Below, piece by piece: positions 18,752 to 61,653 of a DNA stretch of 64,000 bases (position 1 is its first letter; every line of letters starts with the position of its first letter). A program made the translations under genes and the position numbers. The notes under the pieces are model-generated. The model searched no databases. It saw nothing but the letters and a program-made list of their open reading frames with translations, and was not told the origin of the DNA. Origin of the DNA: an uncultured virus (IMG/VR IMGVR_UViG_3300021087_000002). Taxonomy: Duplodnaviria; Heunggongvirae; Uroviricota; Caudoviricetes. The DNA lies in IMG/VR virus record IMGVR_UViG_3300021087_000002. One strand, given 5' to 3'.

Positions 18752-18760
18752 TCTATCACT

Positions 18761-20299: not shown

Positions 20300-20793
20300 C
20301 AAAAATACTTATAAGAGATAACTTCTTATCAGAAGAAACATACAATGCTATACTCCTTGATGCAATATCTACCAAGCAAGATGGTAGTGTTAGTAGGCAT
20401 TGGTACGACTATGATCCAACACCAGAGATTGCGCAGTTCGCAAATTACTTTGGCAAGAAACGTGGTTATAGAGAATTGGCTAGGTTTATACACACCACAA
20501 CCACAGTCCCAAACTTTACCCACAAGATACATGATGAAGCAGAGTTTAAGATCATGTCAGCAATCATATATCTAAGTCCAGAGAAAAACCACGGAACGAC
20601 ATTTTATATCGACGGAAAGCAAGAGACTGTTGAATGGAAACCTAACAGACTAATGGTCTTTTGTGGAGAGACAGGTGTGACGTGGCATGATTATAAGTCT
20701 AGCGACGAAACAAGATATACATATAACTACTTTCTAGTAGACCCAACAAAGATTGAAAATGAAGCATATAAAGACTATTGCATTAGGCTGTGA
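20296..20793 (+). CDS. 2OG-Fe(II) oxygenase
   Basis: HDE...IIYL...GTTF...WKPNR...WH...RYT facial-triad pattern. Confidence 0.75.
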   Translation: MTKILIRDNFLSEETYNAILLDAISTKQDGSVSRHWYDYDPTPEIAQFANYFGKKRGYRELARFIHTTTTVPNFTHKIHDEAEFKIMSAIIYLSPEKNHGTTFYIDGKQETVEWKPNRLMVFCGETGVTWHDYKSSDETRYTYNYFLVDPTKIENEAYKDYCIRL

Positions 20794-31064: not shown

Positions 31065-32132
31065 ATGGCGGCAATTAATTTCCCATCATCGCCAGCAAAT
31101 GGCGCAACCCACACCGCTAACAACGTCACATGGACATTTGAAAGTGCAAAAGGTGTGTGGAGAGCTACTACCTTTGCGGATGCTCCTCAAGGCGTAAAAG
31201 GTCAAAAAGGTGAGAAGGGTCAAAAGGGTCAAAAAGGCGAAGTAGGTCAAAAAGGTCAAAAGGGACAGACTGGTAATACTGGTAATACTGGTTCAACTGG
31301 TGCCAAAGGACAAAAAGGTGAGATTGGTAATACTGGTAATACTGGTAGCACAGGTAATACTGGTAGCACTGGTTCAACTGGTGCCAAAGGACAAAAAGGT
31401 CAAAAAGGACAAACTGGTAGCACTGGTGCCAAAGGTCAAAAGGGTGAGATTGGTGCAACTGGTAGTACTGGTAGCACTGGATCGACAGGTAGCACAGGAT
31501 CTAAGGGACAAAAGGGTGAGATAGGTGCCTTTGGAGGCGGATCTCTTGATATCACTAACGGTGGTCTTTTCTCTAATGCCTCATCTAACTGGACAGGTGA
31601 TCCAGGTACAAAAGGTAAAATCCAATATCACTCAAATAGATGGTACATTGTTGCAGACCAATCTTCAAACAGAATTGTTCAGTTTAGAAGAAATGGCTCC
31701 GATGTATCGTATGTTGATAACTCAGGTACCTACCAAGGTACGGCTACGTCTGCAAACTGGTCGGATTTGGCGGAGAAATATTTAGCTGATAGAGGATATG
31801 AGCATGGAGATCTTTTGGCTATTGGTGGCGATAATGAGGTAACTCTATACCAAAAAGGTATGGCTATTGCAGGTGTTATCTCTACACTTCCAGGCGTTAG
31901 AATGAATGTTAACGAAGATAATAAAGAAGATCCTTTATGGCCTTTCATTGCTCTTAAGGGACGTATCCCATGTAAGGTTAACGGAACTGTTAAAAAGGGT
32001 GACTATATAGTAGCAGATAATGACGGTAAATGTAAAGCAGTTCCAATTGAACGTGCTTCTGAAATACACTTCTTATATTATGTTGGTGTAGCATTAGAAG
32101 ATGGTGAAGGGGTAGTCGAGGTTAAAGTTTAA
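31065..32132 (+). CDS. Collagen-like fibre protein with C-terminal intramolecular chaperone (Peptidase_G2-like) domain
   Basis: 38 Gly-X-Y triplets; C-term SDLAEKY...GVIST...ALKGRIPCKV...KKGDYIV. Confidence 0.8.
   Translation: MAAINFPSSPANGATHTANNVTWTFESAKGVWRATTFADAPQGVKGQKGEKGQKGQKGEVGQKGQKGQTGNTGNTGSTGAKGQKGEIGNTGNTGSTGNTGSTGSTGAKGQKGQKGQTGSTGAKGQKGEIGATGSTGSTGSTGSTGSKGQKGEIGAFGGGSLDITNGGLFSNASSNWTGDPGTKGKIQYHSNRWYIVADQSSNRIVQFRRNGSDVSYVDNSGTYQGTATSANWSDLAEKYLADRGYEHGDLLAIGGDNEVTLYQKGMAIAGVISTLPGVRMNVNEDNKEDPLWPFIALKGRIPCKVNGTVKKGDYIVADNDGKCKAVPIERASEIHFLYYVGVALEDGEGVVEVKV
31191..31532 (+). repeat. Collagen Gly-X-Y repeat (Lys/Thr at Y, no Pro)
   Basis: GQK, GNT and GST triplets. Confidence 0.9.
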
Positions 32133-32518
32133 TGCCAACCTATGCACAAAATAATAGTAGTTTGCAAAGTCAAGCTGGAGCACAGTTAAGGACTTTTGAT
32201 AAAACGATGACGTTTACTGTCACTGCATATGTGTTGCAAACAGTGTCACAAACTCAAGCGGGACCTACAAGCTCAAGTGGCTTTAATCAACGCTTTGAGT
32301 ACACAGGAGCGGCTAACTCGCTATACAATAACTATTTAGATTCTGGGATATACACAGGGAATCGTATGTACAGTCAAGATGTTATTGACTCTATTAATAG
32401 TGTTATGCAAAGAACAGTAGATCAGATTGAATCTCGTATCACTAACAGATCCATTTCAGCTTTACTATGTCATAGCTCTTGTCATACTAGTTGTCACACA
32501 TCAAGAGGTCGTAGATAA
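32132..32518 (+). CDS. Putative radical-SAM target/precursor protein 1 (C-terminal CHxS x3 + RGRR)
   Basis: 128 aa ending LCHSSCHTSCHTSRGRR; TAATG-coupled to the fibre gene. Confidence 0.65.
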   Translation: MPTYAQNNSSLQSQAGAQLRTFDKTMTFTVTAYVLQTVSQTQAGPTSSSGFNQRFEYTGAANSLYNNYLDSGIYTGNRMYSQDVIDSINSVMQRTVDQIESRITNRSISALLCHSSCHTSCHTSRGRR

Positions 32519-32904
32519 TGGGTAATTTAACCAGAGATAGTATAGATAGTTACATGCAAACTTATGCAGGTGGTAAGTTAAGAACGTTTGACAAAACTAT
32601 TACTATAACAACTACAGCATATCAGAATAACAATCCCACTGCTATGGGTGGAACAGGTAGTAATACTACGACACATAGGTTTGAATATACAGGAGCGGCT
32701 AACTCTCTATTTGATAACTATATTGATGGTGGCATATCCGCAGGCTCAAGAGCATATTCGCAAGACATCGTTGACACATTAGAGGACGGAGTAAGAAGAA
32801 CCGTAGACCTCATTGAAGGTAGAATTACTAATAGATCTATCTCCGCAGTATTATGCCACTCAAGCTGTCACACCAGCTGTCATACATCAAGAGGAAGACG
32901 TTAA
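32518..32904 (+). CDS. Putative radical-SAM target/precursor protein 2 (paralogue)
   Basis: 128 aa, identical C-terminal tail; TAATG-coupled. Confidence 0.65.
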   Translation: MGNLTRDSIDSYMQTYAGGKLRTFDKTITITTTAYQNNNPTAMGGTGSNTTTHRFEYTGAANSLFDNYIDGGISAGSRAYSQDIVDTLEDGVRRTVDLIEGRITNRSISAVLCHSSCHTSCHTSRGRR

Positions 32905-32905
32905 A

Positions 32906-34084
32906 ATGACAATGCAACAATCATATTGTAAGCAGATGAGATACTCAGGACCTGAAAGTCTGGCACCATCTGATGCAACAAAGTTCGATGTTCTTATTCA
33001 GATGGAAGTTCTCTCTGGGTGTGAACAGGGTTGCCTTGGCTGTTTTGTTGATAAAGCAATTGATCCAGAAGTCAATCAAGCAATTATTGATCGTGCTAAG
33101 GAACTTGCTGATGGCGTTAAACGTGTAGGTGGCAACCTAAGAGAGTTTGTTATCGGTCCTACAGACCTATTCTCTGCTAAAAATACAAAAGATATCTTGA
33201 CAAATCCAACAGTTCAAGCTATAATGAGAGAACACACTAATGCACGTATTGCCTCTCCTGCTAAGTTTGACAATGCGTCAATGGAAAAGGTCAGAGAGAT
33301 CTTTGCTATTCTAGACGATCTAGATGCATATAGACGTGAAATGGTTATCGAATTCATTATGCCGATTGGTCGTATTAACGAGATGTTGGATGATGACGAT
33401 TACTATAATAGAGTTATGGAGAAGATAGAGTTCTTTAAGAACGAAACTCCAAAGATGATGGACTGGTCTTGGACTTTACAAGCTTCTAATGTTGTTGGTA
33501 AACAGATCGACAAAGAGAAATACAATAGACTGATTGATCGTTCTGTAAATGATTTTGGAACCATCATGGAGATGAACCCAGCATTTGCAAGAGCACCTAA
33601 TCAGATTATCCAACGTAATAACTTGTTTGCTTGGAATAGGTTCCTAGAATCAGTTATTGATGAAGATAACCGTAAAGAGGCCGTTATGTCAATGGCTAAC
33701 CTTTATTGTAACTCAATCAACTTTGTGGGTATCACTATCGTACCAGGAGAGAACGGACCTACTACGCATTTGAATGTTATGTTGCATGAACAGGCATTTT
33801 TCTTATCTAATAAGAACCTAGATGTAACAGGATTATCTTTTGAGGAAATCTTACAACGTAAGAACGAATTGATTACAAAAGGTATAAATAGGTCTAGTAA
33901 GGTAAAGGACTGCTCAGATTGTAAGTTTGCTGTCGCATGTGCTAACAGATTAGTATTCGAAGCACAAGAAAGCTTAAACATAGATGGATGTGTATTACCA
34001 AAAGAAACATTGAAGTATTATAATCCATTCGACTTTACTTGGAATGATGATGCAACTCAATATAAAATGAAAGACGGAGCGTAA
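32906..34084 (+). CDS. Divergent radical SAM enzyme (GPTD clade) 1
   Basis: CEQGCLGC, IGPTD, C-term CSDCx5C...C; start set at MTMQQ. Confidence 0.75.
   Translation: MTMQQSYCKQMRYSGPESLAPSDATKFDVLIQMEVLSGCEQGCLGCFVDKAIDPEVNQAIIDRAKELADGVKRVGGNLREFVIGPTDLFSAKNTKDILTNPTVQAIMREHTNARIASPAKFDNASMEKVREIFAILDDLDAYRREMVIEFIMPIGRINEMLDDDDYYNRVMEKIEFFKNETPKMMDWSWTLQASNVVGKQIDKEKYNRLIDRSVNDFGTIMEMNPAFARAPNQIIQRNNLFAWNRFLESVIDEDNRKEAVMSMANLYCNSINFVGITIVPGENGPTTHLNVMLHEQAFFLSNKNLDVTGLSFEEILQRKNELITKGINRSSKVKDCSDCKFAVACANRLVFEAQESLNIDGCVLPKETLKYYNPFDFTWNDDATQYKMKDGA
33883..33890 (+). promoter_or_regulatory. Possible internal late promoter
   Basis: TATAAATA about 200 nt upstream of 34087. Confidence 0.4.
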
Positions 34085-34086
34085 CC

Positions 34087-35190
34087 ATGATAGGTCAAAA
34101 TCTATACTACTTAAACAATAGTAAGTATATCTCAACTCTTGAAAACTTAGACACTGTAGTTGGTGAGTTAAACTCGTATTATCACACGTCAACCCCACGT
34201 AACATCGTTCTCGTGCATCCATCAAATGGTGCACAGTTGTTGGCGGCTCAGTATGAATCTATTGCTAATACTGTTAGAAATAATGCTAACGATCTAATAT
34301 CTTATATGACTTTCGATGAAGTTGATGATGTTGATTTCATTCAGAATAGTGATAAACGTATTGTTCTATTTTCTACTTGTGAAGATATGATTAAAGTGTT
34401 TGCAAGATATACATCTGGACTTATTACTGCATCTGGCTTCTATGATTCAAGTACTAACGTTACAAGTATGGTTGGACAATTCCTTGAGAAGATTTTCTCT
34501 ATGGATGCTATGCTTACTATGGTTCTTGCTGACGAGACTATTAATGACGTATCAAATCATGTAGACACACTATTCTCCACAGACTCAGGTGGTGGCGGAG
34601 TAACTCCTTATACAGTGATCTATCAGAATGGTAAGAACTTTAGTTATGATCTTTTATTTTGGTTAAACGATTACCACAGAACTAATGCAGTACAGCTACT
34701 TATTAAAGAAAAGTTTACAGTACATCAGTCTACAATGGCTCAAGATGTGATGGAACACTTTACATCAAGGCGGCACTACTTGGCATATATCCTTTCAGTA
34801 ATTGATTGGATGAATGCCAATACAGCACGTAATGCAGAATATGCCACAAATAAGACAGAGTGGGTTAGGGACTGTTATATTACTAAAGCAAATGCAGGTA
34901 ACTATACTGCCGCATTCTATAAACTAGAAGAGCTATGGAACCTAGTCAAAGCAGATACTGCATTCATTGCCGCACACCAAGATAAAGCAGACAGTGATGC
35001 AGACGGTTGGGAATATATGGATCTCTATACAGAGTTTAAGAATGTATTTCCTATTGTACGAAAAGTATTACAAAACGATTTTGATATGGATAATCTGACT
35101 GCCGATCTTAAACTGATCAATACGGATGTTCAGTTCTTCTCTAAGAGACAAAACCGTATCCCATATCTTATCCATAAGTATCCACTATAA
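34087..35190 (+). CDS. Hypothetical protein in rSAM cluster
   Basis: 367 aa, no recognised motif. Confidence 0.6.
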   Translation: MIGQNLYYLNNSKYISTLENLDTVVGELNSYYHTSTPRNIVLVHPSNGAQLLAAQYESIANTVRNNANDLISYMTFDEVDDVDFIQNSDKRIVLFSTCEDMIKVFARYTSGLITASGFYDSSTNVTSMVGQFLEKIFSMDAMLTMVLADETINDVSNHVDTLFSTDSGGGGVTPYTVIYQNGKNFSYDLLFWLNDYHRTNAVQLLIKEKFTVHQSTMAQDVMEHFTSRRHYLAYILSVIDWMNANTARNAEYATNKTEWVRDCYITKANAGNYTAAFYKLEELWNLVKADTAFIAAHQDKADSDADGWEYMDLYTEFKNVFPIVRKVLQNDFDMDNLTADLKLINTDVQFFSKRQNRIPYLIHKYPL

Positions 35191-35203
35191 GGAACATTAT
35201 ATT

Positions 35204-35962
35204 ATGACAATTCCAGACGAAAGTACGTGCTATGAGTTACCTCTATCTCCACAGCACCTAGTACAGATATACAAAGATAAGAATGAACTTGAAGAGTATG
35301 TCCTTTGGGTTGACTATGCTAAAAGCAAAGAGAAACTATCAGCCCAACATATTATCATTTATTTGGCTAATACCAACTTTAAGACAACATTCTCTTCTAT
35401 TGATGAGGATCTGATTAAGGCTTACATCAATTCGGACTTTATGGTAGATTGTCCGTTACTAGCTAGAATTGTTGTTCTTATTATTAAGTTTTATTATAAG
35501 CACGATATTAGTGAACAAGAAAGTCAGTTGCTATACATATTCCCACCAAAGTTAATCTTTAAGTTTATTGAAGAGAATTCAGCATTGGTCGAGAGCCTCA
35601 TAGATACAGTTGCATCTTCTGTTCCCTTTGCATTATCAAAACTTTATGATGGTCTCACAGATGATCAAAAAGAATTAGAAGTTAATCTTAAACAATTACT
35701 TGATGATACCAAAGTAGTGGATAAGCCAGCTATGTGCGGTCCTAATATTGCTAGGCTTCTTACAACTGGCTATGATGCACTTCTACTAATTGTAAGTAAG
35801 AGGGGGCTATCTACAGAATACAATAAACAAATATATAACGATTCACCAAAATACTTCGGTAGAGATCTATACAACGTTATGTGCGAAGCTAAAATAACGG
35901 ATCAAATAGTATCATTCTTCCCCGAAGATTTTATGTTGTTTGTCAATGATAACGAAGCTTAA
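35204..35962 (+). CDS. Hypothetical protein in rSAM cluster
   Basis: About 252 aa; start set at MTIPD after the AAGGA RBS. Confidence 0.6.
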   Translation: MTIPDESTCYELPLSPQHLVQIYKDKNELEEYVLWVDYAKSKEKLSAQHIIIYLANTNFKTTFSSIDEDLIKAYINSDFMVDCPLLARIVVLIIKFYYKHDISEQESQLLYIFPPKLIFKFIEENSALVESLIDTVASSVPFALSKLYDGLTDDQKELEVNLKQLLDDTKVVDKPAMCGPNIARLLTTGYDALLLIVSKRGLSTEYNKQIYNDSPKYFGRDLYNVMCEAKITDQIVSFFPEDFMLFVNDNEA

Positions 35963-36971
35963 TGCAACAGAAGCAGGGTATTACAGCTATATTGATGGTA
36001 TAAGTCCTACCAATGTAGAATTCCTACGCACAGAGATTAACCTAGATATTCTTCATGGTTGTGATCAGATGTGCCCCGGATGCTTCATTCCTAGAAAAAA
36101 CCTAACATCACCAGACCATATGACAAAGCTTTATGATCTTTTGTGTAAGGGTCAGATGTATCCAGATGAAATTACTATAGGTCCAACAGATATATTTGAT
36201 GCACAAAACTTCGATGAAGTTATGCAACATCCATCTATGACAGATCTATACAGCATATCTGGTGTTGGGTTTACATCTACATTACTACAAGATCCTTCTA
36301 TTGTCAAGCCTAAACTTGATATGATTTGGCAGATCTATAGAAACATTAATCGTATTCCAGATATTGATTTTAAGATTGTATTGGATGTAGAGGCGTATCT
36401 TGATGATGATCTTGATCCTAACTTCCTAGAGAACATTAAACTATTCAGTATAGGATCTGTTCAGTTTAGAGTTAATTACACAGAAGATCTATTTGATAAG
36501 ATATCTTATAACGAACTATGTTCTAGGGTTAAAGAAGACTTCAACGCACCAGTAGTTATCACACCTTCATTCTTGACAGACAGAAACGCACGTGGTAAGG
36601 TTAATAAGTTTCTTGATATGTTTAGGGAAGACCTACGTAAACAAGATATTGATCCAGAATGGCGTAATCTTTACACATTCTTTGATGCTAAGTTTAATGG
36701 ATATGGTTGCCAGAACTACAGCTTTTATAATGGGAAACTATATGTTAACCCATTCCTATATGATGCAATCATACAAAGAACTCCTGAGTTTGAGACGGAT
36801 ATAGACCAAGAGTGGTTGCCACAAAACCTAGAGTATGCGAATACAGTTGAAGATTGTTCTGACTGCGAATACATGCTCAGTTGTGCAGAAAGAAACGTAC
36901 ACATGTATATGAAGTCAAGGAAACTAGACCAATGTGTCGCCTTGAAAGAGTATATGTATGCCACTAATTAA
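35946..36971 (+). CDS. Divergent radical SAM enzyme (GPTD clade) 2
   Basis: CDQMCPGC, IGPTD, CSDCx5C...C. Confidence 0.8.
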   Translation: MITKLNATEAGYYSYIDGISPTNVEFLRTEINLDILHGCDQMCPGCFIPRKNLTSPDHMTKLYDLLCKGQMYPDEITIGPTDIFDAQNFDEVMQHPSMTDLYSISGVGFTSTLLQDPSIVKPKLDMIWQIYRNINRIPDIDFKIVLDVEAYLDDDLDPNFLENIKLFSIGSVQFRVNYTEDLFDKISYNELCSRVKEDFNAPVVITPSFLTDRNARGKVNKFLDMFREDLRKQDIDPEWRNLYTFFDAKFNGYGCQNYSFYNGKLYVNPFLYDAIIQRTPEFETDIDQEWLPQNLEYANTVEDCSDCEYMLSCAERNVHMYMKSRKLDQCVALKEYMYATN

Positions 36972-38121
36972 AAACAACCTATACTACGAACTCACCACGG
37001 AAACTCAGACCAAGCCAGTATCGGCAGTAAAGATACAGCTTGATGTTTTAGATGGTTGTCATCACAAATGCCCAGGTTGCTTTGTGCATCGTAGAGGTAA
37101 TGCTAGTGACGAGCATCAGTTAGATAAAGCCAAAAACTTCATACGAGACATAACAGACAAAGGTATTCTGGTTGACGAAATCCTAATAGGTCCGACAGAT
37201 TTCCTTGCATCAGAGAACTTCTATGAGGTCATGCCTTCTTTGATTGATATCATCAACGAGAACTCTCCTATCCTTGCATTCGTGTCTACGTTGATAGATG
37301 GGGATCTTCCTAGGTGGATTGCTTTCATAACAAATAATATCAACACAGACACAGAGATTGAAATTGGGATTGCAACAAACCCACACAAGTTCTTTGATAA
37401 AGAGTATGTCGATCATATTCATAAGATGTTACAATATATCGATGAGAACCTTGAGCACGAGGTAACATATACCTTTGTTGTAAACATACGTGATTATGGG
37501 CTAGATTACGTTAAACTGCATAAAAGCGCAGTAGAACGCTTTAATACGATATTAGACTTTATACCGTCTGTTTCACGATCACACAAACCAAAGCTAATAC
37601 TTGACACATTAGACAAGTTTAACGACTTCTTTGATGAGCTAAGTGCTTATAAAGAAACAAAATTAAATAACATAATGGTAGACCACTCACATGGTGGGAT
37701 GAATTATACTGTGTTAAACTACAAAAAGGGCGAATGGTTCATTTCACCGTTTATGTACGAAAACATGGCATTGTACCATGAAATGTTTAAAGTAGATACA
37801 TTTGATGAAGTACTGCCTATTTTAGAAAGTCAACTTGAGAGAGTAAAGAATACAGAGTGTGAGACTTGTCCATTGCTGATGTCTTGTTACAATAGAAAGA
37901 TTATCTTACTTAGAGATTACCTTGGGGTTAATAGATGTATTGCACCCAAGAAGAATATGCTTGCACATATACATAACTATAACGCACCTGCTCAAACCAT
38001 GTACAAATGGGACGGATATACTGTAGAAGGTGATAAGAATGGTTATCGTAAAAGGTTCCTTGTGACTGAAGACGGTGACAAAGAGCTAGACAGAATAAAG
38101 GCTATATCTTATGTTAAATAG
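36958..38121 (+). CDS. Divergent radical SAM enzyme (GPTD clade) 3
   Basis: CHHKCPGC, IGPTD, CETCx5C...C. Confidence 0.8.
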   Translation: MPLIKNNLYYELTTETQTKPVSAVKIQLDVLDGCHHKCPGCFVHRRGNASDEHQLDKAKNFIRDITDKGILVDEILIGPTDFLASENFYEVMPSLIDIINENSPILAFVSTLIDGDLPRWIAFITNNINTDTEIEIGIATNPHKFFDKEYVDHIHKMLQYIDENLEHEVTYTFVVNIRDYGLDYVKLHKSAVERFNTILDFIPSVSRSHKPKLILDTLDKFNDFFDELSAYKETKLNNIMVDHSHGGMNYTVLNYKKGEWFISPFMYENMALYHEMFKVDTFDEVLPILESQLERVKNTECETCPLLMSCYNRKIILLRDYLGVNRCIAPKKNMLAHIHNYNAPAQTMYKWDGYTVEGDKNGYRKRFLVTEDGDKELDRIKAISYVK

Positions 38122-39250
38122 TAGTTGGGAAGATATCGTCAAACATGGTGGCGTGGGGGAAGAGTTTACTTCTGTATCATCTATGGGACAATATAAGATA
38201 CAAGTAACACTAGAACTACTTGAGGGCTGTTCTTACATGTGTCCGGGATGTTTTGTTAAGAGACGTGGAAACTGGCACCCTAAGTCTATACAACTATTTT
38301 ATGATCTAGCATATGCATTAAAAGATAATTCCGATATAGTTCTTGATGATATTGTAATCGGACCTACAGACTTCTACGGAGCAGAAAACTTAGATGAGAT
38401 TATAAAGAACCATAGGCTTGCTAGTGCTATATTAATGATGCCAGAAGACAGTAGAAATATTCAACACAACTGTTCTATTATGGGATCTTTGAGCGAAGAT
38501 GATATTCTAGGTAAGATTAAGTCTATAGAAAAGTCTCCTCTTGGACAGGTTGTTAAGTCATGGGATGTGCAGATAGCACTAGATCTTAACAGAGTACTAG
38601 ATGATCCAGTTTATAGAAATGCGTTGGACACCAGAGTTAACCACTTTAAAGACAGTACACTGGACTTTGAGATATCAATGGCAACCAATATTGTTGATGG
38701 TATAGAGGATAGATTGTACGAGGCTATCGATTACATACGAGAGACCTACAATACAGTCATTGAGATCTTACCATCCGTTGTTCGATCTTTTAACAATACA
38801 ACTAAGCATGGTGATAAACTGTTTGCTTGGAATGATATGCTTACCAATCTATCTACTGATGTTAATCGTTTTAAGAACAAGTTTCATTTCCTACAAGGAG
38901 ATCTATCTCACAAAGCATTTCATTATGCAGTAGTAAACATACATCATGGAAAACTATATGCTTCACCATTCATCTATGAGAATGCTCAAATTTACAAACC
39001 AGATTTTGAGATTGTACAAGATAGACCTATACTAGATGCTATCTTAGATTATAAACATAAAGTTGTATCGGAGCAATTAAAGAATAGTTTTGATAAAGAA
39101 TGTGGTACGTGCAAGTACCTTAATGTATGCTCCAATAGATTAATACCAAAGGTTATGGATACGATGTTTAAAGGACGTTCAGAGTGTATCTTAAATAAAG
39201 AAGTTATTGCCCTATTTGACAACGAGGAATATCATGGGAATAGTTACTAA
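38111..39250 (+). CDS. Divergent radical SAM enzyme (GPTD clade) 4
   Basis: CSYMCPGC, IGPTD, CGTCx5C...C. Confidence 0.8.
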   Translation: MLNSSWEDIVKHGGVGEEFTSVSSMGQYKIQVTLELLEGCSYMCPGCFVKRRGNWHPKSIQLFYDLAYALKDNSDIVLDDIVIGPTDFYGAENLDEIIKNHRLASAILMMPEDSRNIQHNCSIMGSLSEDDILGKIKSIEKSPLGQVVKSWDVQIALDLNRVLDDPVYRNALDTRVNHFKDSTLDFEISMATNIVDGIEDRLYEAIDYIRETYNTVIEILPSVVRSFNNTTKHGDKLFAWNDMLTNLSTDVNRFKNKFHFLQGDLSHKAFHYAVVNIHHGKLYASPFIYENAQIYKPDFEIVQDRPILDAILDYKHKVVSEQLKNSFDKECGTCKYLNVCSNRLIPKVMDTMFKGRSECILNKEVIALFDNEEYHGNSY

Positions 39251-40256
39251 TAACAAAAGTGAAGCACAGGCAGACAAAGACTTTGACTTGTCATTTAACG
39301 ATGGACACGAAATCAAAGTAATCTTTAATGCCGAAGTGTTGTCAGGTTGTGAGTTTAAATGTGTTGGTTGTTTTGTGAACAAACTAGGAACAAACATAGG
39401 TAGCTTTGATAGACTAAACAATGCTATTGACTTGTTCAATGATAATGGTTATAGATCATCTACGATCAACATAGGTCCCACAGACATATTTGGTAATAAC
39501 AATGTGATGGATCTATTACAGGATCCAGACTTCAGAGATGCGTTAAGTAAAGTCACTACTATCCAGTTTGTTACCACACTTGAGAACATTGACTTAGACG
39601 TAATCAATGAGTTGAATAGCATTCCTAAGACAAAAGGATTTATGTATGATGCGAACATAGCAATAGATCCTAAGAAGTTTCCTAACGGATATGAGGAGAT
39701 GATTGATAAGTTAAATCTATTTGATGACGATCTTAATTACTACATTGTCCTTAATATGGGAAATGATGATGACCTTAATGAAAGGGTTCTTGAGTTATCT
39801 GATATAGCAGATAAACAGTTCGATACAATCTTAACACTCAATCCATCATTTTTAAGAACTGAGAAGAGCAAGGTACATAAACATCTAATCAACAAGTGGA
39901 AGAAGCTAGATGATTGGGCAGAAGACAACTTTCCTTCTACTATCATCGATCAGGCACAAGGTGGATCTTTAGAACTCAACTACACATATTGTAATGGTAA
40001 CTTCTTTTGGACACCATTTGTATATGATATCGTCAAGATAGGTACAGATCAGTTTAAGGTTAAGGATGAAGAGAACATAGACTCTTGGCTAAAGGCTAAG
40101 AATGACAGTTTCCTAACCCAGATGATGTACACATCCAAGACAGATAGTTGTGACGGATGTGCCAAGATGATGACTTGTATCGATAAAGGTGTACAGTCCT
40201 ACATGGAACACCATTCTATTACTGAGTGTTTGTTTCCATATAATCAAAACCAGTGA
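39234..40256 (+). CDS. Divergent radical SAM enzyme (GPTD clade) 5
   Basis: CEFKCVGC, IGPTD, CDGCx5C...C; start set at MGIVT. Confidence 0.8.
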   Translation: MGIVTNNKSEAQADKDFDLSFNDGHEIKVIFNAEVLSGCEFKCVGCFVNKLGTNIGSFDRLNNAIDLFNDNGYRSSTINIGPTDIFGNNNVMDLLQDPDFRDALSKVTTIQFVTTLENIDLDVINELNSIPKTKGFMYDANIAIDPKKFPNGYEEMIDKLNLFDDDLNYYIVLNMGNDDDLNERVLELSDIADKQFDTILTLNPSFLRTEKSKVHKHLINKWKKLDDWAEDNFPSTIIDQAQGGSLELNYTYCNGNFFWTPFVYDIVKIGTDQFKVKDEENIDSWLKAKNDSFLTQMMYTSKTDSCDGCAKMMTCIDKGVQSYMEHHSITECLFPYNQNQ

Positions 40257-41301
40257 TTAAGTTCTGACCAGTCTTATCCATGTAGTTAAACCACATACGC
40301 ATAATACAATCAGGTAGATCTCTTTCACGATTCTTCCAGTCCCATTGTGTGTAGCACCTAAATCCACATTTATTCCACCACTTACACGATAGACAGCCAT
40401 TCTCATCCATATATGCTTGCATCATCCCAGCATTATCTTTGCGCTCATACTTTGTGTTGAAGTCACGTTGATCATATCTATCCCATCTACAGTTTGATGT
40501 AGAGTTATCAGGAAAGATTGTAACCTTGTTAAGAGCCAAGCAATGCATATGATTGCTCTCTTGGTATATAAGATCTTTAATAGGATTAATGTCAGGGTAG
40601 TTATGATATACAAACTTTAAGAACTCAAGGTATTCGCTATCCGATGGTATCATATAATCATACCCACGATCAGGTATGTAATCATCAAAGTAGAAGTTAT
40701 CAAACTTCTCATACAGATAATGAAAGTATTCATCATCATCTGCCATAAACTTCTTAATAGAAATAGTGGTAGCAACCATGTTAATAGATGTAATATAGTC
40801 GGCAAAGTGCTCTATGTTCTTACCATAAGGTCCTTTTACAGGTCTTCCATCGAAGTCATAAGAGCATATAATATAAGATGGTATATCTACTGCGTTTAGA
40901 TCATCAAGTAACTTTTGCACTCTATCTCTTTTACTAAACTGAAATGAAGTAACCCAAACTACTTTAATCTCCGCACCATGTGTATCAAATATCTTCTTGA
41001 TCTCTACAAGGAAATCGTAGTATACAGGATAAGCCCATTCTGATATTCGATCTTGAAACAATTCTCCACCAACCATGTTGATCTGGATAACGTCTACTCG
41101 GCCTTTCATTTTGATGACATGTTGTTCAACCAAGTCTAGTTTGGAGAAGATCTCTTCACGAGACAAGCCTACTGTAGACTTCTTATCATGGTGACAAAAA
41201 GAACAGTTAAGGTGACAGTTCTCAAATAGTGTCAACTCAATCTCGGCTATGTCTGGACGCTTATCTTCCAGTAGTTGCTTGGTGAAGTCAAAGTTGTCCA
41301 A
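40219..41301 (-). CDS. Radical SAM/SPASM enzyme
   Basis: CHLNCSFC, VGGEL, C...C...CLSCKWWNKCGFRC...C. Confidence 0.85.
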   Translation of the reverse strand: MDNFDFTKQLLEDKRPDIAEIELTLFENCHLNCSFCHHDKKSTVGLSREEIFSKLDLVEQHVIKMKGRVDVIQINMVGGELFQDRISEWAYPVYYDFLVEIKKIFDTHGAEIKVVWVTSFQFSKRDRVQKLLDDLNAVDIPSYIICSYDFDGRPVKGPYGKNIEHFADYITSINMVATTISIKKFMADDDEYFHYLYEKFDNFYFDDYIPDRGYDYMIPSDSEYLEFLKFVYHNYPDINPIKDLIYQESNHMHCLALNKVTIFPDNSTSNCRWDRYDQRDFNTKYERKDNAGMMQAYMDENGCLSCKWWNKCGFRCYTQWDWKNRERDLPDCIMRMWFNYMDKTGQNLITGFDYMETNTQ

Positions 41302-41689
41302 TCAACATTTCCTCTTTATAATATTGATATATGTCTGGAACCATACCTAGCTCCATATCAAAGTCTAGTTGACCTAAGATATCATCGTATATCTCTTTGC
41401 TTTTGAAATAAGGAAGGAAGTGTGGATCATTACCAAATAGCAGATCCTTATCATTTAAAACATCATAGAAATGTTCATTAAAGTCTTGACTAATCCATGT
41501 GGCATAACATATTGCGACAACGTATGATTTAGCAGGATAAATCCACTCATCTACATATTCTCTAAAATGCATGAGAGCAAAGTCAGCTATATTGTTAGGT
41601 TCCCACCTGATATCAACCTCATTCAGATCATCTTTGAAGAGGGACTGCGTCATGTGATACGCCTGTTGTCGTGCTTTCCATTCCTGCAT
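41288..41689 (-). CDS. Hypothetical protein in rSAM cluster
   Basis: 133 aa, aromatic/acidic; WIYPAKSYVVAICYA. Confidence 0.6.
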   Translation of the reverse strand: MQEWKARQQAYHMTQSLFKDDLNEVDIRWEPNNIADFALMHFREYVDEWIYPAKSYVVAICYATWISQDFNEHFYDVLNDKDLLFGNDPHFLPYFKSKEIYDDILGQLDFDMELGMVPDIYQYYKEEMLIGQL

Positions 41690-42578
41690 AGTAGTCTAGT
41701 AATCCTTTATATCCATTACATCCATTATCTAAGTCCAGAACATACCTGTAGTGTTCGGTGAGACAATTGCCAAAATAGGTACAGCCGTGACATATAGGAC
41801 TAAGATTATCTCGTGCCTCATTTTTTGCCCACTGCTTATACTCATGATAGCTTTGATATTCTTTAAAATACTCTTTATCATTATTATCAAACTCCAATAC
41901 CCCAAACTTACCAGATGGTGTAATATACACATGATCGTTTGAGAATGCGTTATACTCTTTATCTATACTCCTGTAGATGTTATGAATATTCTGAAAGTCA
42001 AAATTCTTAGGTGTAGTAGCTTCATCAAATCTAATAACAAACTCTTCGAAGTCTTTATGGGTAACGTCAAATGAATTTGCTTGGTTAATAGAGTATGGTT
42101 TGATTTCCACAGACTTTACATTAGACACCATATTAAGGGTGAAGATCATAAACTCCACATCCATTTCTAATACTTTTGGTGACGCAAGAATAAGAACAGC
42201 CAGATCTTTATTGGCATTCATCATATTATTTAGGACAAATTGTTCCTTCTCTCTTGCATGAAAGTCGTATGATACAGACAATGTAACGTCATCATCACGA
42301 AAGAAGTCAGGGAATGCTGATAGGTTTGTATTGATATGGATGTTTCCATCATAGTATCTTCGTATTACATTTTTGATAGAATAGTAATACTCAGGTGTTA
42401 GTAATCCTATCTCACCACCATATAGATCCACATGAGTTATAGGATCTGTTATTTGACCCATAGAATGTTGTAACCACATTGGTGTTATTTTGTGTCTATC
42501 ATTTAACTGTTGCTTTGTCAAGTAACAAAAGTCACAAGAGAAGTTGCAATAGTAAGTTGGATTAATTGATAGATTCAT
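41628..42578 (-). CDS. Radical SAM enzyme with partial SPASM
   Basis: CNFSCDFC, YGGEI, NTNL, CHGCx5C...C. Confidence 0.85.
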   Translation of the reverse strand: MNLSINPTYYCNFSCDFCYLTKQQLNDRHKITPMWLQHSMGQITDPITHVDLYGGEIGLLTPEYYYSIKNVIRRYYDGNIHINTNLSAFPDFFRDDDVTLSVSYDFHAREKEQFVLNNMMNANKDLAVLILASPKVLEMDVEFMIFTLNMVSNVKSVEIKPYSINQANSFDVTHKDFEEFVIRFDEATTPKNFDFQNIHNIYRSIDKEYNAFSNDHVYITPSGKFGVLEFDNNDKEYFKEYQSYHEYKQWAKNEARDNLSPICHGCTYFGNCLTEHYRYVLDLDNGCNGYKGLLDYYAGMESTTTGVSHDAVPLQR

Positions 42579-43599
42579 CGACATAAGCTGTCACTCCATC
42601 AGGGTTCATTCCATTGATCTCAAGTATACGAGGTGCTAATGTTTTCATCTGTCTACAATGAGATTCTACTGTACCCTCTCTCTTCATATCTCGTACAGTC
42701 TTCTTACAGCCATTACATATCTCAAACATAGGACACGTGTAGCAAGCCATCTTCATTGTTTGTATATTAGGATCATCTTGAAGTGGTGTTTGCATCTTTC
42801 CATTCATTTCTGTTTCAAAATCAATAGGATAATCCATATCATCACCAAACGAACCACAAGAGTAATAATCACCACCTGGGTTCATAGCTCTAATTCCTGT
42901 ATCACACAATCTATTCTGTGGACAAGATGTCGCAGATCCACCAAGTCGTTTCATCATTTGCTTGGTATTGTATTCGTACTCAGCCAAACCCATATCGTAA
43001 ATCTTAATATATGTTTCATAGATTTTAGACAATTGATATGTAGTGCCTTGCACACCAGATGCCATAGCATAATTTAACTTACACTCTACACCCATCTCTT
43101 TTGCTAACTCAACATTCTTGATAGCAAGGTGTTCATTCTCATCAGTTATAACAGCAATGAAGTCAGGACGTTCTCCTGTGTGTTTAAGCATAGCGTTAGA
43201 TACCATCCAAAAGTCTTTCTCAGTAAACTCCGAATAGTCTCCCTTTAATCTACCACCACCATATTGAAACGATGTAGCACAACCAAATCTTCTGTTCTGA
43301 AATATAGGTAACCATTTCTCTGGTCTCATTAAGAAAGGCCAAAGGTTAGATGTGAATGATATAGATGCAGGGTAGTCATGTTCGTCTAAGTGATCTATTA
43401 ATTCTTGATACCACTCAGGCTTGACCATAAGAGGATCTCCACCGTTAACAATAATAGTGTTACAATCAGGATATCTCTTTAGAAACTTATAGACGTAATC
43501 TAGATCCAACAATCCAACTTCATTAGGATCAATGTCAGTAGAAGAACAGAAAGTACACTTGAAGTTACAAGCTTCTGTTGGTTTAATAATTAGATCCAT
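42562..43599 (-). CDS. Radical SAM/SPASM enzyme
   Basis: IIKPTEACNFKCTFC, NGGDPL, CPQNRLC...YSC...CYTCPMFEICNGC...C. Confidence 0.9.
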   Translation of the reverse strand: MDLIIKPTEACNFKCTFCSSTDIDPNEVGLLDLDYVYKFLKRYPDCNTIIVNGGDPLMVKPEWYQELIDHLDEHDYPASISFTSNLWPFLMRPEKWLPIFQNRRFGCATSFQYGGGRLKGDYSEFTEKDFWMVSNAMLKHTGERPDFIAVITDENEHLAIKNVELAKEMGVECKLNYAMASGVQGTTYQLSKIYETYIKIYDMGLAEYEYNTKQMMKRLGGSATSCPQNRLCDTGIRAMNPGGDYYSCGSFGDDMDYPIDFETEMNGKMQTPLQDDPNIQTMKMACYTCPMFEICNGCKKTVRDMKREGTVESHCRQMKTLAPRILEINGMNPDGVTAYVDESIN

Positions 43600-44621
43600 T
43601 CTTTTTCTTTCGCCAATTTTAGCATTAGAGTTTTAGGGGCAGGGCAAACATCATCCATCCACTGTAGTTGATGACAGTCTGAATGGCAGTACATGAAGAC
43701 AGGGCATTTATAACACCGTTCATCACGTTCATGCTGTTCACATGATATGATCTCCATACGTTTAGGACTTAATCGCACTTCCTTTGCTGGTGTATCTATA
43801 TTACCATAATGCATGGTCGGTGCAGTATTAGGACAACCTGCTACAGTACCATCTGCGTTGATGGTGTGTATCTTCTGTTCACAATCACGACAGAATGTTC
43901 CTGCTCTAAACTGACCTTTACTAAACTTCTCGTAAACAGTTTCCATAAATCCATTCACAACATTATGATATTGAGTTTGTTCATGCATTAACATCCACCA
44001 AGCATCTAGTTCTTTGTTGTGAGGAAAGATATCTGTATTAATAGTGGCATTACCATCATGCGTCAATCTCTCATACGATATCTCAGCAACACCAAGAGAC
44101 TCCATGTAATCAGCAATCTCAATTGGTTGTAACTTTATAACATCTTTAGATACAGATATAAAGCACTTGACACGATGACCAAGTCCTGTTAGATGTTTAA
44201 CATTATTCTCCCACATCTTTCTCTGATGTTCGTTACTAAAACGAATATTAGGATCCCATGATGTGCCTATATTACCACCTGTAATAACTTCACTAAAGAA
44301 CTTTAATCTTTCTTCGGTTAGTTTGAATACAAGATTTGTTGTAATACCATGTGTTGCTCTATCACCCCATTGCGCCTTTGTGATATCATGAAACTCACGT
44401 AGGTTTGCCATGGGTGCAAGCATAGGTTCTCCACCATGATATTCAAGGTGAATTAAGTTATCTCCAGTGTCGAGTTGATTACACCAATTCGCAGTCTTCA
44501 CATGGTCGAAGTAGATCTTCCTACCATTCATTCCAGATGTAAAGCAATGCGAACAGTTCAGATTACATGTTTCAGTAGTCTTTACGTAAATAACTGAGTG
44601 TTTCTGTGTCGTTAACGCCAT
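43590..44621 (-). CDS. Radical SAM/SPASM enzyme
   Basis: YVKTTETCNLNCSHC, HGGEPM, TTNL, CRDC...GCP...CYKCPVFMYCHSDC...C. Confidence 0.9.
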   Translation of the reverse strand: MALTTQKHSVIYVKTTETCNLNCSHCFTSGMNGRKIYFDHVKTANWCNQLDTGDNLIHLEYHGGEPMLAPMANLREFHDITKAQWGDRATHGITTNLVFKLTEERLKFFSEVITGGNIGTSWDPNIRFSNEHQRKMWENNVKHLTGLGHRVKCFISVSKDVIKLQPIEIADYMESLGVAEISYERLTHDGNATINTDIFPHNKELDAWWMLMHEQTQYHNVVNGFMETVYEKFSKGQFRAGTFCRDCEQKIHTINADGTVAGCPNTAPTMHYGNIDTPAKEVRLSPKRMEIISCEQHERDERCYKCPVFMYCHSDCHQLQWMDDVCPAPKTLMLKLAKEKEWI

Positions 44622-45036
44622 AGCTTAGTGTTAGAGCCTTCTCTGAGTTCAATGCAATGTGGGGTGTTTCTGCAGGAATAAAGATCTTAGATCCCTTCTC
44701 TATCATAACATACCTATCATCAATTTCCATTATCTTACATCCGTCAAGACATTCGATGTATATATCTATAGGATCTGTATGTACAGGAAAGGAAGGTGCG
44801 TCAACAGGCGCATAAAATATATGAATAGTCCCATCATAGGGTTGAATACGTTCATAGTTCTCTACCTTAATGGTATCATCACCACTAAACCAAAGATCTA
44901 CAACTTTACCTTGATATGCAAATATATTGTCATGTTCAATGTATTGCTGTTCCCCCTTATTGTTGATAAAGGAAACAGCACACTTATTAAAACATTCTTC
45001 GCTCATTAAGAAGTCAAAGAATTCTTCAAATGTCAT
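44572..45036 (-). CDS. JmjC/cupin-like oxygenase
   Basis: SFPVHTDPIDIYI...GCK...IFIPAETPH (HxD...H). Confidence 0.65.
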   Translation of the reverse strand: MTFEEFFDFLMSEECFNKCAVSFINNKGEQQYIEHDNIFAYQGKVVDLWFSGDDTIKVENYERIQPYDGTIHIFYAPVDAPSFPVHTDPIDIYIECLDGCKIMEIDDRYVMIEKGSKIFIPAETPHIALNSEKALTLSYGVNDTETLSYLRKDY

Positions 45037-45200
45037 TCTCCACCTATATTTAGGAACGTTAGCATATTAGCAGTAACAACCCAATTTCCAACGCCATGTT
45101 CACGTATAGTAACCTTTTTACCATTGACTTTTTCGATAATACCTGTTACAGTAGTTCCATCAATATTCGTGAATGAAGCAATGTTGCCTAGTTTAACCAT
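45033..45200 (-). CDS. Small protein (55 aa) not in the ORF track
   Basis: MVKLGNIASFTNIDGTTVTGIIEKVNGKKVTIREHGVGNWVVTANMLTFLNIGGE; purine-rich RBS, promoter upstream, ATGA overlap with the cupin. Confidence 0.6.
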   Translation of the reverse strand: MVKLGNIASFTNIDGTTVTGIIEKVNGKKVTIREHGVGNWVVTANMLTFLNIGGE

Positions 45201-45307: not shown

Positions 45308-45868
45308 ATGGATATCCATAATCTATGGCCTACACAAGTGGGTCAAGGTAAGTTCGACACCACTGGTCTGGTAGAACACATATTTAGTACATACGATCTA
45401 AACAATCCACCTAGTGATTTGGGGGGATATAATATCTTAGATGATGATTCTATAGTAATGACTAAGTTTTCAAATCAAGTGTTTGTGGCTTTTGATGATT
45501 ATCTAAAGGCTACTATAGATTGTTCGATTGATGATTGGAATCACTGTGAGATGAAAGCTTGGATCACTGGTCATGGTAAAGACTACTCTATGACTATTCA
45601 CAACCACACAGGAGCACATCTATCAGGAGTCTTCTATATACTAGCAGAGGATAAAAACTCAGGTGGTGACATTGTGATGCACGATCCTAGATCTAATGCT
45701 AACAGAGGATATGACGAATACTTTAATCCTATGTTTAACAGGCATCATCACACACCTGAGACAGGAGATTTTATGATATTTCCTAGTTTCACCTACCACC
45801 ACGTCAACCCATACTACTCACAACTGAGGATCTGCGTACCTGTAGATCTGTATCTTTATAGGGAATAA
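45308..45868 (+). CDS. 2OG-Fe(II) oxygenase (marine phage type)
   Basis: HNH...LSGVFY...GGDI...DPR...IFPS...HHV...R. Confidence 0.8.
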   Translation: MDIHNLWPTQVGQGKFDTTGLVEHIFSTYDLNNPPSDLGGYNILDDDSIVMTKFSNQVFVAFDDYLKATIDCSIDDWNHCEMKAWITGHGKDYSMTIHNHTGAHLSGVFYILAEDKNSGGDIVMHDPRSNANRGYDEYFNPMFNRHHHTPETGDFMIFPSFTYHHVNPYYSQLRICVPVDLYLYRE

Positions 45869-61603: not shown

Positions 61604-61632
61604 TTTATAGCATGCGATTCGTTAGATGTCAA
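61604..61632 (-). promoter_or_regulatory. Sigma70-type (early) promoter
   Basis: TTGACA-17 nt-TATAAA with TGn extension. Confidence 0.65.
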
Positions 61633-61645
61633 GTGTTATTTTGTG

Positions 61646-61653
61646 TATAAATA
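61646..61653 (+). promoter_or_regulatory. T4-type late promoter
   Basis: TATAAATA upstream of the iscA-like gene. Confidence 0.75.

Follow-up and report, generated by a model that had tools for sequence, protein, structure and literature searches.

A phage cassette of radical SAM enzymes predicted to mature the C-terminal tail of a virion protein

Analysis of a 64,000-nucleotide stretch of DNA from an uncultured virus (IMG/VR record IMGVR_UViG_3300021087_000002; the whole stretch is called the window below) revealed two adjacent genes, preA and preB, whose products share an identical C-terminal tail of Cys-His repeats, next to nine genes of radical S-adenosylmethionine (rSAM) enzymes, rS1 to rS9. 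Together with a cupin and several further proteins they form a cassette which we consider, with moderate confidence, to be a dedicated maturation kit for the tail of a virion protein. The tail is the only invariant part of an otherwise drifting protein, every locus with full flanks that codes for it also holds rSAM genes, and one homologue is present in the virion of a cultured phage. The window holds the structural genes of a marine T4-like myovirus: PHROGs and Pfam matches identify portal, major head protein, scaffold, prohead protease, sheath and tube, as well as terminase, neck proteins, UvsY and UvsW.

An invariant tail on a variable protein

PreA and PreB both comprise 128 amino acids (aa), are 61% identical and end in CHSSCHTSCHTSRGRR. 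The stop codon of the fibre gene upstream overlaps the start of preA as TAATG (32130-32134), and preA is joined to preB by the same kind of stop-start overlap (32516-32520); coordinates and overlaps thus bore out the initial annotation, which had described two 128-aa paralogues with an identical tail and TAATG coupling. The nearest record (G001) has the same two tailed-protein genes. Corresponding tails in cultured phages are CHSSCHTSCHGSRGRR (RSL2, ORF068) and CHTSCHASCHSSRSRR (Phosso).

A word-indexed search retrieved 124 homologues of PreA at E ≤ 1e-3, of which 120 were listed. All of these 120 ended in SRGRR, and 117 of the 120 contained three intact C-H-x-S units, a conservation far in excess of what chance would give. 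When 79 diverse members (124-211 aa) were aligned, the mean column identity was 22%, and the invariant columns were only the C, H and S of each repeat together with R125, R127 and R128. The tail, proposed earlier as the modified core, is hence the sole invariant part of the protein: its 16 residues are kept while the remainder drifts.

To cover the family more broadly, a profile search was made against 1.84 billion cluster representatives, clustered at 50% identity, and identified 815 representatives at E ≤ 1e-3. Among the newly listed members the canonical tail was present in 95 of 148. The other 53, inspected by eye, mostly deviated only by Asn (sometimes Asp or Ala) at the Ser position of at least one unit; roughly a dozen were truncated or had a different ending. 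The repeat was initially given as CHxS; in the wider family its Ser is often Asn. Because of this frequent replacement the motif was widened, and judged by the alignments it is best written as (C-H-x-S/N)3-R-x-R-R at the extreme C-terminus of proteins ranging from 124 to 309 aa.

AlphaFold2 (AF2) modelled PreA with a predicted local distance difference test score (pLDDT) of 82 as a helix, a long beta-hairpin and a second long helix. The tail was of low confidence, with residues 115-122 modelled as helical (pLDDT 54-63). In fold searches with this model neither Foldseek (best E 0.65) nor VIA-align (best Z 5.6) gave a match above background, and no NCBIfam or Pfam model matched PreA, PreB or the small cassette protein unk133 at E ≤ 0.01. 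Searching 50,697 phage records by tblastn with PreA and with a 190-aa family member gave no match; the family is too divergent, or its sequence too simple, to be found in this way, and records near the window may be missing from the set. The whole region, compared with the same records by megablast, gave no match either.

Tailed proteins and rSAM genes occur together

With a degenerate DNA pattern of the tail plus stop codon, at least 121 loci were found in viral contigs. Of these, 80 could be used with their flanks, many of which were cut by contig ends, and 37 had full 10-kb flanks; their open reading frames (ORFs) were clustered with the window proteins (Table 1). The co-occurrence that the initial annotation had proposed to examine was strict: at least three rSAM-like genes were present in 37/37 full-flank loci (three in one locus, four in 12, five in 16, six in two and seven in six), and no tailed protein stood without rSAM neighbours. 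The misses of rS8 and rS9 include T4-like loci whose cassette exceeds the flank length.

Table 1. Occurrence of cassette families around the tail pattern in viral loci.
Family	Flanked loci	Full-flank loci
Tailed protein	80/80	
unk252 family	74/80	34/37
rS7/8/9 group	74/80	rS7 35/37, rS8 32/37, rS9 31/37
rS6	66/80	35/37
Fibre C-terminal domain (Peptidase_G2, G2)	65/80	31/37
Cupin	55/80	30/37
~370-aa fam8 protein	46/80	fam8 or unk367 32/37
rS1-5 family	34/80	12/37
2-oxoglutarate (2OG) oxygenase	32/80	
unk367	21/80	
unk133		29/37

The core of the cassette consists of the tailed protein, rS6-rS9 (four rSAM enzymes of SPASM or twitch type), the cupin, unk133, unk252 and a ~370-aa protein (fam8). 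The nine rSAM genes had at first been regarded as one set. This holds for rS6-rS9, but rS1-rS5 are accessory; they represent a lineage-specific expansion of one enzyme family, which reached five copies in 5 of the full-flank loci.

The usual gene order is fibre, cupin, rS9, tailed protein, unk252, fam8, rS6, rS8, rS7, unk133 and 2OG oxygenase, and this order, up to unk133, is kept from the jumbo phages RSL2, Phosso and Atu_ph07 to the T4-like phage of the window. Directly upstream of the tailed protein we found rS9 in 48/80 loci and the fibre in 24/80, the latter being the rearranged T4-like form seen in the window; directly downstream, unk252 was found in 45/80. Cultured jumbo phages with the cassette are Ralstonia phages RSL2 and RSF1 and Burkholderia phages FLC6, FLC8 and SURPRISE13, and it is also present in Agrobacterium phage Atu_ph07, Sinorhizobium phage Phosso and Pseudomonas phage pPa_SNUABM_DT01. 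All known hosts are Gram-negative. The annotations given in the jumbo-phage papers list merely cupin, rSAM and 2OG entries, and in the literature searched no paper describing the cassette or its tail was found.

Two further families occur in related loci and are absent from the window. A B12-binding rSAM protein of ~570-635 aa (fam15; L127:5549-7252, L134:463-2370 and relatives) was present in 14/37 full-flank loci and hints at C-methylation in those lineages, and many non-T4 cassettes also have extra 2OG oxygenases (fam10).

Copies of the cassette in predatory bacteria

Among 185,579 species genomes the tail DNA pattern was found at 22 loci, all of them in bins or metagenome-assembled genomes (MAGs) and on contigs of up to 1.29 Mb; 12 of the 22 were labelled as Bdellovibrionota-type predators. 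The bacterial loci carry the tailed protein, unk252, fam8, rS6, several enzymes of the rS7/8/9 type and the cupin. The Bdellovibrionota loci are surrounded by housekeeping genes (serine dehydratase, Mrp/NUBPL, GreA, peptidyl-tRNA hydrolase, cbb3 oxidase, lipoate ligase and ABC transporters) and so appear to be chromosomal copies and not phage contigs. Six other loci resemble T4-like or related phage contigs binned into MAGs. Peptidase_S74 proteins of 320-413 aa lie within 10 kb in seven loci (L130, L133, L137, L138, L140, L142 and L144), and the link to self-chaperoning fibre-like proteins therefore recurs in cells.

Two of these proteins, of 348 aa (L140:17582-18628) and 407 aa (L137:8246-9469) and coded beside the cassette, carry both a type IV pilin N-terminal methylation motif and, at the other end, the Peptidase_S74 domain; a pilin-anchored fibre in predatory bacteria would, if true, be unusual. 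Beside a Halobacteriovoraceae copy, L138:2138-4952 codes for a clostripain-family peptidase and a transglutaminase-elicitor-like protein, which may be protein cross-linking or processing enzymes.

A homologue of the tailed protein in virions

To relate the cassette to the phage particle, we turned to Agrobacterium phage Atu_ph07, whose virions were analysed by sodium dodecyl sulfate (SDS) polyacrylamide gel electrophoresis and electrospray ionization tandem mass spectrometry (Attai, 2018, PMC6102473). The tailed protein of this phage has 296 aa, a calculated mass of 31.89 kDa and the RefSeq tag gp170, which identifies it as the gp170 of that study. Table S5 of the paper lists gp170 (31.89 kDa) in the virion with 8 unique peptides (35.16% coverage); it was detected in bands 1-9 and had its maximum in band 1. 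This band marks the top of the gel, where proteins of 75-139 kDa peak, those of 7-15 kDa peaking in bands 12-13; other Atu_ph07 proteins of ~30 kDa (gp57-65) peak in bands 7-8 (PMC6102473). According to these data the tailed protein is virion-associated and runs far above its size after boiling in SDS, a migration which fits, and does not prove, a covalent or very stable linkage. The products of the adjacent genes gp165-169, gp171 and gp172 (rSAM enzymes, the unk252 homologue and the cupin) are absent from the same Table S5. The idea of a virion component, raised when the window was first annotated, thus agrees with the published proteome as far as its Table S5 goes.

Among the fibres coded next to the tailed protein, which are 299 to 3194 aa long, conservation is confined to the C-terminal ~160 residues. 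PF11962 (Peptidase_G2) matched 38/44 members of the fibre family (best E 8.9e-9), the copy in the window scoring 21.6 bits at a cut-off of 25, and the C-terminal profile matched the phi29 gp12 autochaperone and the Dpo31 tailspike chaperone domain in the PDB. From these matches the C-terminus is most probably an intramolecular chaperone domain of the Peptidase_G2 type. The likeness to phi29 gp12 and the tailspike autochaperones concerns this neighbouring fibre only, not the tailed protein or the enzymes. The coupling to a tail-fibre gene noted initially was recovered, with the domain now named as a Peptidase_G2 autochaperone and with a 2OG oxygenase (45308-45868) added to the neighbourhood. 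In Atu_ph07 the G2 fibre is gp176, assigned by its calculated mass; the 66.07-kDa protein peaks in band 4, at the level of 50-55 kDa proteins (PMC6102473). Because this position matches the 52.4 kDa of the portion before the ADLAE motif, self-cleavage of the G2 domain is suggested.

The radical SAM enzymes

All nine rS genes code for CX3CX2C near the N-terminus and for Cys-rich C-termini. Five + strand and four - strand rSAM genes had been called initially, and the call stood, with the start of rS1 now set to 32906 in place of a TTG at 32813. The motif was invariant in each family alignment (rS1-5, rS6, rS7, rS8 and rS9). The Pfam model Radical_SAM (PF04055) matched rS6, rS7, rS8 and rS9, of which rS8 alone scored above the gathering score (33.3 vs 29.5 bits), and all four matched phrog_1802. 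Among the + strand enzymes only rS3 matched Radical_SAM (25 bits, E 2.4e-5, below the cut-off). C34/C38/C41 are invariant in the rS1-5 family (phrog_31457), which also has a P-T-D motif and four Cys in its C-terminal part, and hhalign aligned this family with the rS9 family over 281 columns (probability 65%, E 5.9e-5).

rS9 passed both SPASM models (22.6 vs 21.5 bits for PF13186, 30.3 vs 27 for TIGR04085), and rS8 stayed below the TIGR04085 cut-off with 20.9 bits. Six to seven C-terminal Cys are invariant in rS6 and rS8; rS7 and rS1-5 have four only and are twitch-like. The rS8 family had the highest mean column identity of the enzymes (65%).

NCBIfam scans were performed with 24 members each of the rS9 and rS8 families and with the single sequences of the window for rS6 and rS7. 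PapB was the best model for rS9 in 24/24 members (best E 2.6e-17), and CbpB, DynA, anSME and DarE as well as, weakly and in 20/24, HxsB were also matched. Members of the rS8 family matched DynA (24/24), anSME (21/24) and, weakly, HxsC (20/24). These relatives of rS8 and rS9 all modify ribosomal peptides or proteins. None of the rS6-rS9 proteins reached a curated NCBIfam equivalog cut-off, and only the generic SPASM model was passed, by rS9. The scan against rSAM maturase families, suggested in the initial annotation, thus returned resemblance to peptide and protein maturases only, at scores far below all cut-offs. Against the PDB, the rS9 profile matched CteB (best, E 7.5e-9), anSME (full length) and ChlB.

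The cupin and the accessory proteins

The cupin passed JmjC_2 (PF08007) marginally, and H72, H86-x-D88, K101 and H126, which include the H-x-D...H triad, were invariant in 31/31 sequences of its family; its early designation as a JmjC cupin was thereby corroborated.

The AF2 model of unk252 was of high quality (pLDDT 89.7, predicted template modelling score 0.87). No fold match was obtained with it by Foldseek (best E 0.44) or VIA-align (best Z 4.8), the best score in the ESM Atlas (0.76) was under the useful range, the profile gave a best E of 0.29 against the PDB, and a Pfam scan of 33 family members returned single chance matches only. hhalign showed no relation between unk252 and fam8. By the same method unk367 may correspond, in divergent form, to fam8, the ~370-aa protein found in other cassettes (probability 34%, E 4.4e-4). 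That the ~370-aa protein could be a dead rSAM enzyme was also considered and is unsupported, as hhalign of fam8 against rS1-5 showed no relation.

Layout of the locus and neighbouring genes

On the + strand a 982-aa virion protein gene is followed by two collagen-repeat fibres (29362-31062 and 31065-32132), preA and preB and then by rS1, unk367, unk252, rS2, rS3, rS4 and rS5. Convergent with this run, orf55, cupin, rS9, rS8, rS7, unk133 and rS6 lie on the - strand (Table 2). The initial gene list was retained for all members except orf55, which had no homologue at E 1e-5 in the 121 related loci and is at most a putative gene; the 2OG oxygenase at 45308-45868 is probably part of the cassette.

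Table 2. Features of the cassette in the window.
Feature	Position	Strand	Evidence and remarks
Collagen-repeat fibre, 355 aa	31065..32132	+	Pfam Collagen E 1.4e-18
Putative Peptidase_G2-type intramolecular-chaperone (autocleaving) domain of fibre, C-terminal ~160 aa	31650-32129	+	Family matches to PF11962
preA, tailed protein, 128 aa	32132..32518	+	Tail coded at 32468-32515; phrog_35144 E 8e-9
preB, paralogue of preA, 128 aa	32518..32904	+	Identical tail coded at 32854-32901
rS1, divergent rSAM-like, accessory phage family	32906..34084	+	CX3CX2C, CxxCx5C...C motifs; RSL2 ORF071 homologue
unk367, conserved, function unassigned	34087..35190	+	In 21/80 loci; without Pfam match
unk252, core accessory protein	35204..35962	+	Family in 74/80 flanked loci
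rS2, divergent rSAM-like	35940..36971	+	CX3CX2C; phrog_31457
rS3, divergent rSAM-like	36958..38121	+	phrog_31457 E 4.5e-11; Pfam Radical_SAM E 2.4e-5, below cut-off
rS4, divergent rSAM-like	38111..39250	+	CX3CX2C; phrog_31457 family
rS5, divergent rSAM-like	39207..40256	+	CX3CX2C; phrog_31457 family
rS6, core rSAM, 7-Cys SPASM-type C-terminus	40219..41301	-	phrog_1802 E 1.3e-18; 37% identity to RSL2 ORF072
unk133, small core protein	41288..41689	-	phrog_20737 E 7.6e-37; homologues in RSL2, Phosso
rS7, core rSAM, 4-Cys twitch-like C-terminus	41628..42584	-	phrog_1802; Pfam Radical_SAM below cut-off
rS8, core rSAM/SPASM, best-conserved enzyme	42562..43599	-	Radical_SAM 33.3 bits; 62% identity to Phosso homologue
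rS9, core rSAM/SPASM	43590..44621	-	SPASM 22.6 bits, above cut-off
JmjC-like cupin, probable Fe(II)/2OG dioxygenase	44572..45036	-	PF08007 23.2 vs 22 bits
orf55, 55-aa ORF, doubtful cassette member	45033..45200	-	Without homologue in related loci
2OG-Fe(II) oxygenase, probable accessory member	45308..45868	+	PF13759 E 4.3e-14; homologues within RSL2 cassette

The 3' ends of rS5 and rS6 overlap by 38 bases (40219-40256), and no terminator-like site was found at this convergence; in scans of the window for sigma-70 promoters and terminators, site numbers were no higher than in shuffles. The T4-type late-promoter motif TATAAATA was present in 13 copies vs 6.7 ± 2.5 expected, a number reached by 1 of 100 shuffles. 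Twelve of the 13 copies were on the + strand, and one, at 26258, lies 132 nt 5' of the 982-aa gene heading the fibre-preA-preB run. No copy was found on the - strand near rS6-rS9. This distribution weakly suggests that the substrates are made late and the core enzymes under a different programme.

In total, 11 rSAM-like genes were counted in the window. The phage also encodes an A-type Fe-S cluster carrier (61626-62033, +; PF01521 E 1.6e-15), which presumably supplies its many Fe-S enzymes. The eleventh rSAM gene (19358-20299, +, in 19358-21709) scored above the cut-offs of both Radical_SAM (56 bits) and SPASM (38.1 bits); it is followed by two ORFs of 165 and 318 aa and is unrelated to the cassette families by blastp clustering. 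A block at 8130-19312 (-) codes for two GT8 glycosyltransferases, a carbamoyltransferase, an rSAM protein (13170-14006), a DegT-type aminotransferase, two QueC-like proteins and a nitroreductase-like protein and may represent a sugar or modified-base pathway. At 45872-47806 (+) a 644-aa protein combines a GT25, PLOD-type glycosyltransferase domain with a C-terminal 2OG oxygenase part (phrog_61 E 1e-101; GT_PLOD E 8.7e-44). The two fibres coded nearby have Lys-rich collagen repeats (GQKGEKGQK...), and the protein, which has no counterpart in the 121 related loci, resembles a collagen lysyl hydroxylase/glycosyltransferase that would act on the fibres of the phage itself.

Discussion

We favour maturation of a virion protein on several grounds: the anatomy of the cassette and its conserved gene order, the invariance of the tail, the strict co-occurrence with rSAM genes and the presence of one homologue in virions are shown; preA and preB are coupled to a fibre gene in a run behind a late-promoter motif; and rS8 and rS9 resemble only peptide- or protein-modifying SPASM families (PapB, DynA, anSME, DarE and HxsB/C). 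We infer that the tail is modified, and propose the enzymes responsible, the chemistry and an association with the fibre as follows. The tail (Cys-His-x-Ser/Asn)3-Arg-x-Arg-Arg of PreA and PreB would be the substrate of rS6-rS9, with rS9 as the primary maturase candidate, and these enzymes would install radical changes on Cys, His and Ser/Asn, either as C-S or C-C cross-links or as oxidation of Cys or Ser. The cupin and the 2OG oxygenase might add hydroxylations, with His and Arg as candidate sites, and unk252, unk367 and unk133 would be non-catalytic or unassigned helpers. The matured protein would then be built into the particle, most likely with the fibre coded just upstream, whose C-terminal Peptidase_G2 domain would cleave itself off. 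Going one step further, and more tentatively, the Cys-His tail and its rSAM enzymes, common to predatory Bdellovibrionota and to phages of several unrelated lineages, could produce a heavily cross-linked or reactive fibre-tip warhead directed against the Gram-negative envelope, a refinement that we hold as possible and somewhat doubtful. Its chemistry could be that of thioether or His-Ser cyclophane knots, of a Cys-derived aldehyde or of a built-in metal site; it would bind or breach the envelope of the prey, possibly with covalent, SDS-stable links within the particle.

Several points weigh against maturation of a virion protein. As the enzymes fall far below every curated family cut-off, their chemistry is not assignable. 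rS1, rS2, rS4 and rS5 gave no match to the Pfam model Radical_SAM, and the rS1-5 profile matched nothing in the PDB. The virion evidence comes from a distant jumbo-phage homologue, and its peak in band 1 could be due to an SDS-stable oligomer or to smearing over bands 1-9. The fibre link is one of gene neighbourhood only, and tail-fibre regions are regarded as general hot spots of cargo insertion. In the window the core enzymes are coded on the opposite strand and up to 12 kb from their presumed substrates. Finally, the invariance of Cys, His and Arg in the tail could reflect binding of a metal or a partner alone.

This last point leads to a different explanation, which we regard as unlikely: the tail would be an unmodified metal- or Fe-S-binding motif and the tailed protein a scaffold, a carrier or a structural metal site. 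The rSAM enzymes would then, with the same low likelihood, act on the fibre, on another virion protein, on a small molecule or on a cofactor built on the scaffold. A spacing with period 4 would place the three Cys and the three His along the same helix face, the low-confidence AF2 helix at residues 115-122 and the A-type Fe-S carrier of the phage fit, and metal binding alone would give the invariance. However, rS8 and rS9 match only SPASM families that modify peptides or proteins, and rS9 abuts the tailed protein in 48/80 loci. A homologue found in the virion of Atu_ph07, with the enzymes not listed in Table S5 (PMC6102473), is unfit for a cytoplasmic carrier. The variable x and the alternation of S and N are typical of enzyme recognition motifs, yet this is not decisive.

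In its logic the nearest described system is HXS. There, two rSAM enzymes, HxsB and HxsC, together with the small HxsD mature HxsA, whose five HxS repeats contain many basic residues; HxsA gains +8 Da on an SHRSS motif, binds DNA and blocks the entry of phage DNA (Li et al., Nat Commun 2026, PMC13128918). In both systems a whole protein and not a short peptide bears H-x-S units near basic residues and is coded with several rSAM enzymes and small helpers, and in HXS maturation is needed for function. The cassette could be the counterpart, in phages and predators, of bacterial HXS, whose repeat protein works on DNA or the envelope in the host periplasm, with the matured repeat protein being an effector on DNA or envelope and not part of a fibre; we consider this improbable. 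Equally improbable are the roles it would imply, namely to escort the phage's own DNA, to exclude other phages or to aid predators in invading prey. In its favour, the tail holds three H-x-S units followed by RxRR, HxsB and HxsC are weakly matched in 20/24 members each of the rS9 and rS8 families, the known hosts are all Gram-negative and the cassette is also found in apparently chromosomal loci of Bdellovibrionota. But the HxsB (TIGR03978) and HxsC (TIGR03977) scores (best E 9.7e-11 and 2.3e-8, 24 members each) are far below the cut-offs and weaker than those of PapB or DynA; rS8 of the window reached 22 bits vs an HXS equivalog cut-off of 267.9. No match to the HxsA or HxsD models or to a peptidoglycan-binding domain was found in the cassette proteins with Pfam and NCBIfam. 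Moreover, each repeat of the cassette begins with an invariant Cys that is foreign to the HxS repeat, there are exactly three units at the extreme C-terminus and then R-x-R-R, and four to nine rSAM enzymes are accompanied by a cupin and 2OG oxygenases. The cassette occurs in phages and predatory bacteria beside fibre genes, with a virion-associated product in Atu_ph07, and both its place in the late operon and its coupling to a fibre gene favour a component of the virion. By these comparisons the cassette would not belong to HXS; a role of this kind is compatible with delivery by the virion and so overlaps with the maturation of a virion protein.

For rSAM enzymes acting on whole proteins, anSME and QhpD appear to be the nearest precedents. 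anSME (PDB 4K36-4K39, TIGR03942) is, like rS8 and rS9, a SPASM enzyme, and it acts on a Cys or Ser of a full-length folded protein. It was the only solved structure aligned with the rS9 profile over the whole length (12-318 vs 13-333), and rS8 matched its model with E 8e-11 and 41.6 bits and rS9 with 33.3 bits at a cut-off of 349. The sulfatase motif is C/S-x-P/A-x-R. The last unit of the tail, C-H-x-S-R, shares its Cys-to-Arg spacing; in contrast, the motif itself is absent, the tail lacks a Pro/Ala position and no sulfatase gene is present. QhpD (QhpD/QhpC, TIGR03906) is a SPASM rSAM enzyme that cross-links Cys in a small protein which later becomes part of a larger assembly; however, only 8/24 rS9-family members matched it, weakly, and neither substrate similarity nor a dehydrogenase context was seen. 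As precedents for the repeat pattern, triceptide, sacti-/ranthipeptide and CXXX-repeat systems seem nearest. Triceptide maturases cross-link aromatic-x-x units. The His-x-Ser/Asn repeat would fit such a unit, and rS7, rS8 and rS9 gave weak matches to triceptide models (XyeB, YhhB, FxsB, GrrM/OscB and AmcB), all far below the cut-offs; the invariant Cys has no counterpart there, and the cassette substrates are 124-309 aa long. Sacti-/ranthipeptide and CXXX-repeat systems (PapB NF047865, CteB PDB 5WGG, TIGR04115) share a Cys-rich target with a four-residue period. They differ in score (rS9 of the window 41.1 bits vs a PapB cut-off of 340), in the number of enzyme families, of which the cassette has four together with oxygenases, and in its virion-protein setting.

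Small Cys-rich C-terminal cores beside SPASM maturases are a hallmark of ribosomally synthesized and post-translationally modified peptides, and long leaders occur in other classes of these peptides. A classical peptide of this kind, with a ~110-aa N-terminal leader and a 16-residue core cut off as bioactive product, is nevertheless very improbable: protease or exporter families are absent among the conserved core genes, the N-terminal part is folded (pLDDT 82) in a protein of 124 to 309 aa, the tail is the protein's own C-terminus in every case, and the virion homologue of Atu_ph07 with 35% coverage (PMC6102473) argues against release. DNA hypermodification or nucleotide chemistry was set aside, as the best-conserved enzymes resemble only peptide and protein SPASM maturases and the tailed protein is always present, and so was a simple tail-fibre chaperone, which would not need four Fe-S enzymes.

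Maturation by rSAM enzymes is known for secreted peptides, for a few enzymes (sulfatases, amine dehydrogenase) and, since 2026, for one antiphage effector; in the literature searched, no description of rSAM maturation of a virus particle protein was found. In a marine T4-like genome, Nishimura et al. (2017, PMC5332604) noted an A-type carrier and 12 rSAM genes, which were left unexplained there. A virion-protein maturation kit would explain why marine T4-like phages hold up to a dozen rSAM genes (PMC5332604). Members of the family occur in marine T4-like phages, in jumbo phages that infect plant-associated bacteria and in predatory bacteria, and the phage devotes between four and nine Fe-S enzymes, as well as an Fe-S carrier of its own, to the tailed protein. 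As Atu_ph07 is cultured and its virion proteome exists, the question is directly testable, and solving the chemistry would probably yield new rSAM reactions on Cys, His and Ser and a new principle of virion or fibre stabilisation or of host attack. If the more tentative warhead reading were true, no structural protein of a virus matured by radical SAM enzymes would precede this one, and viruses and bacterial predators would have an attack device in common.

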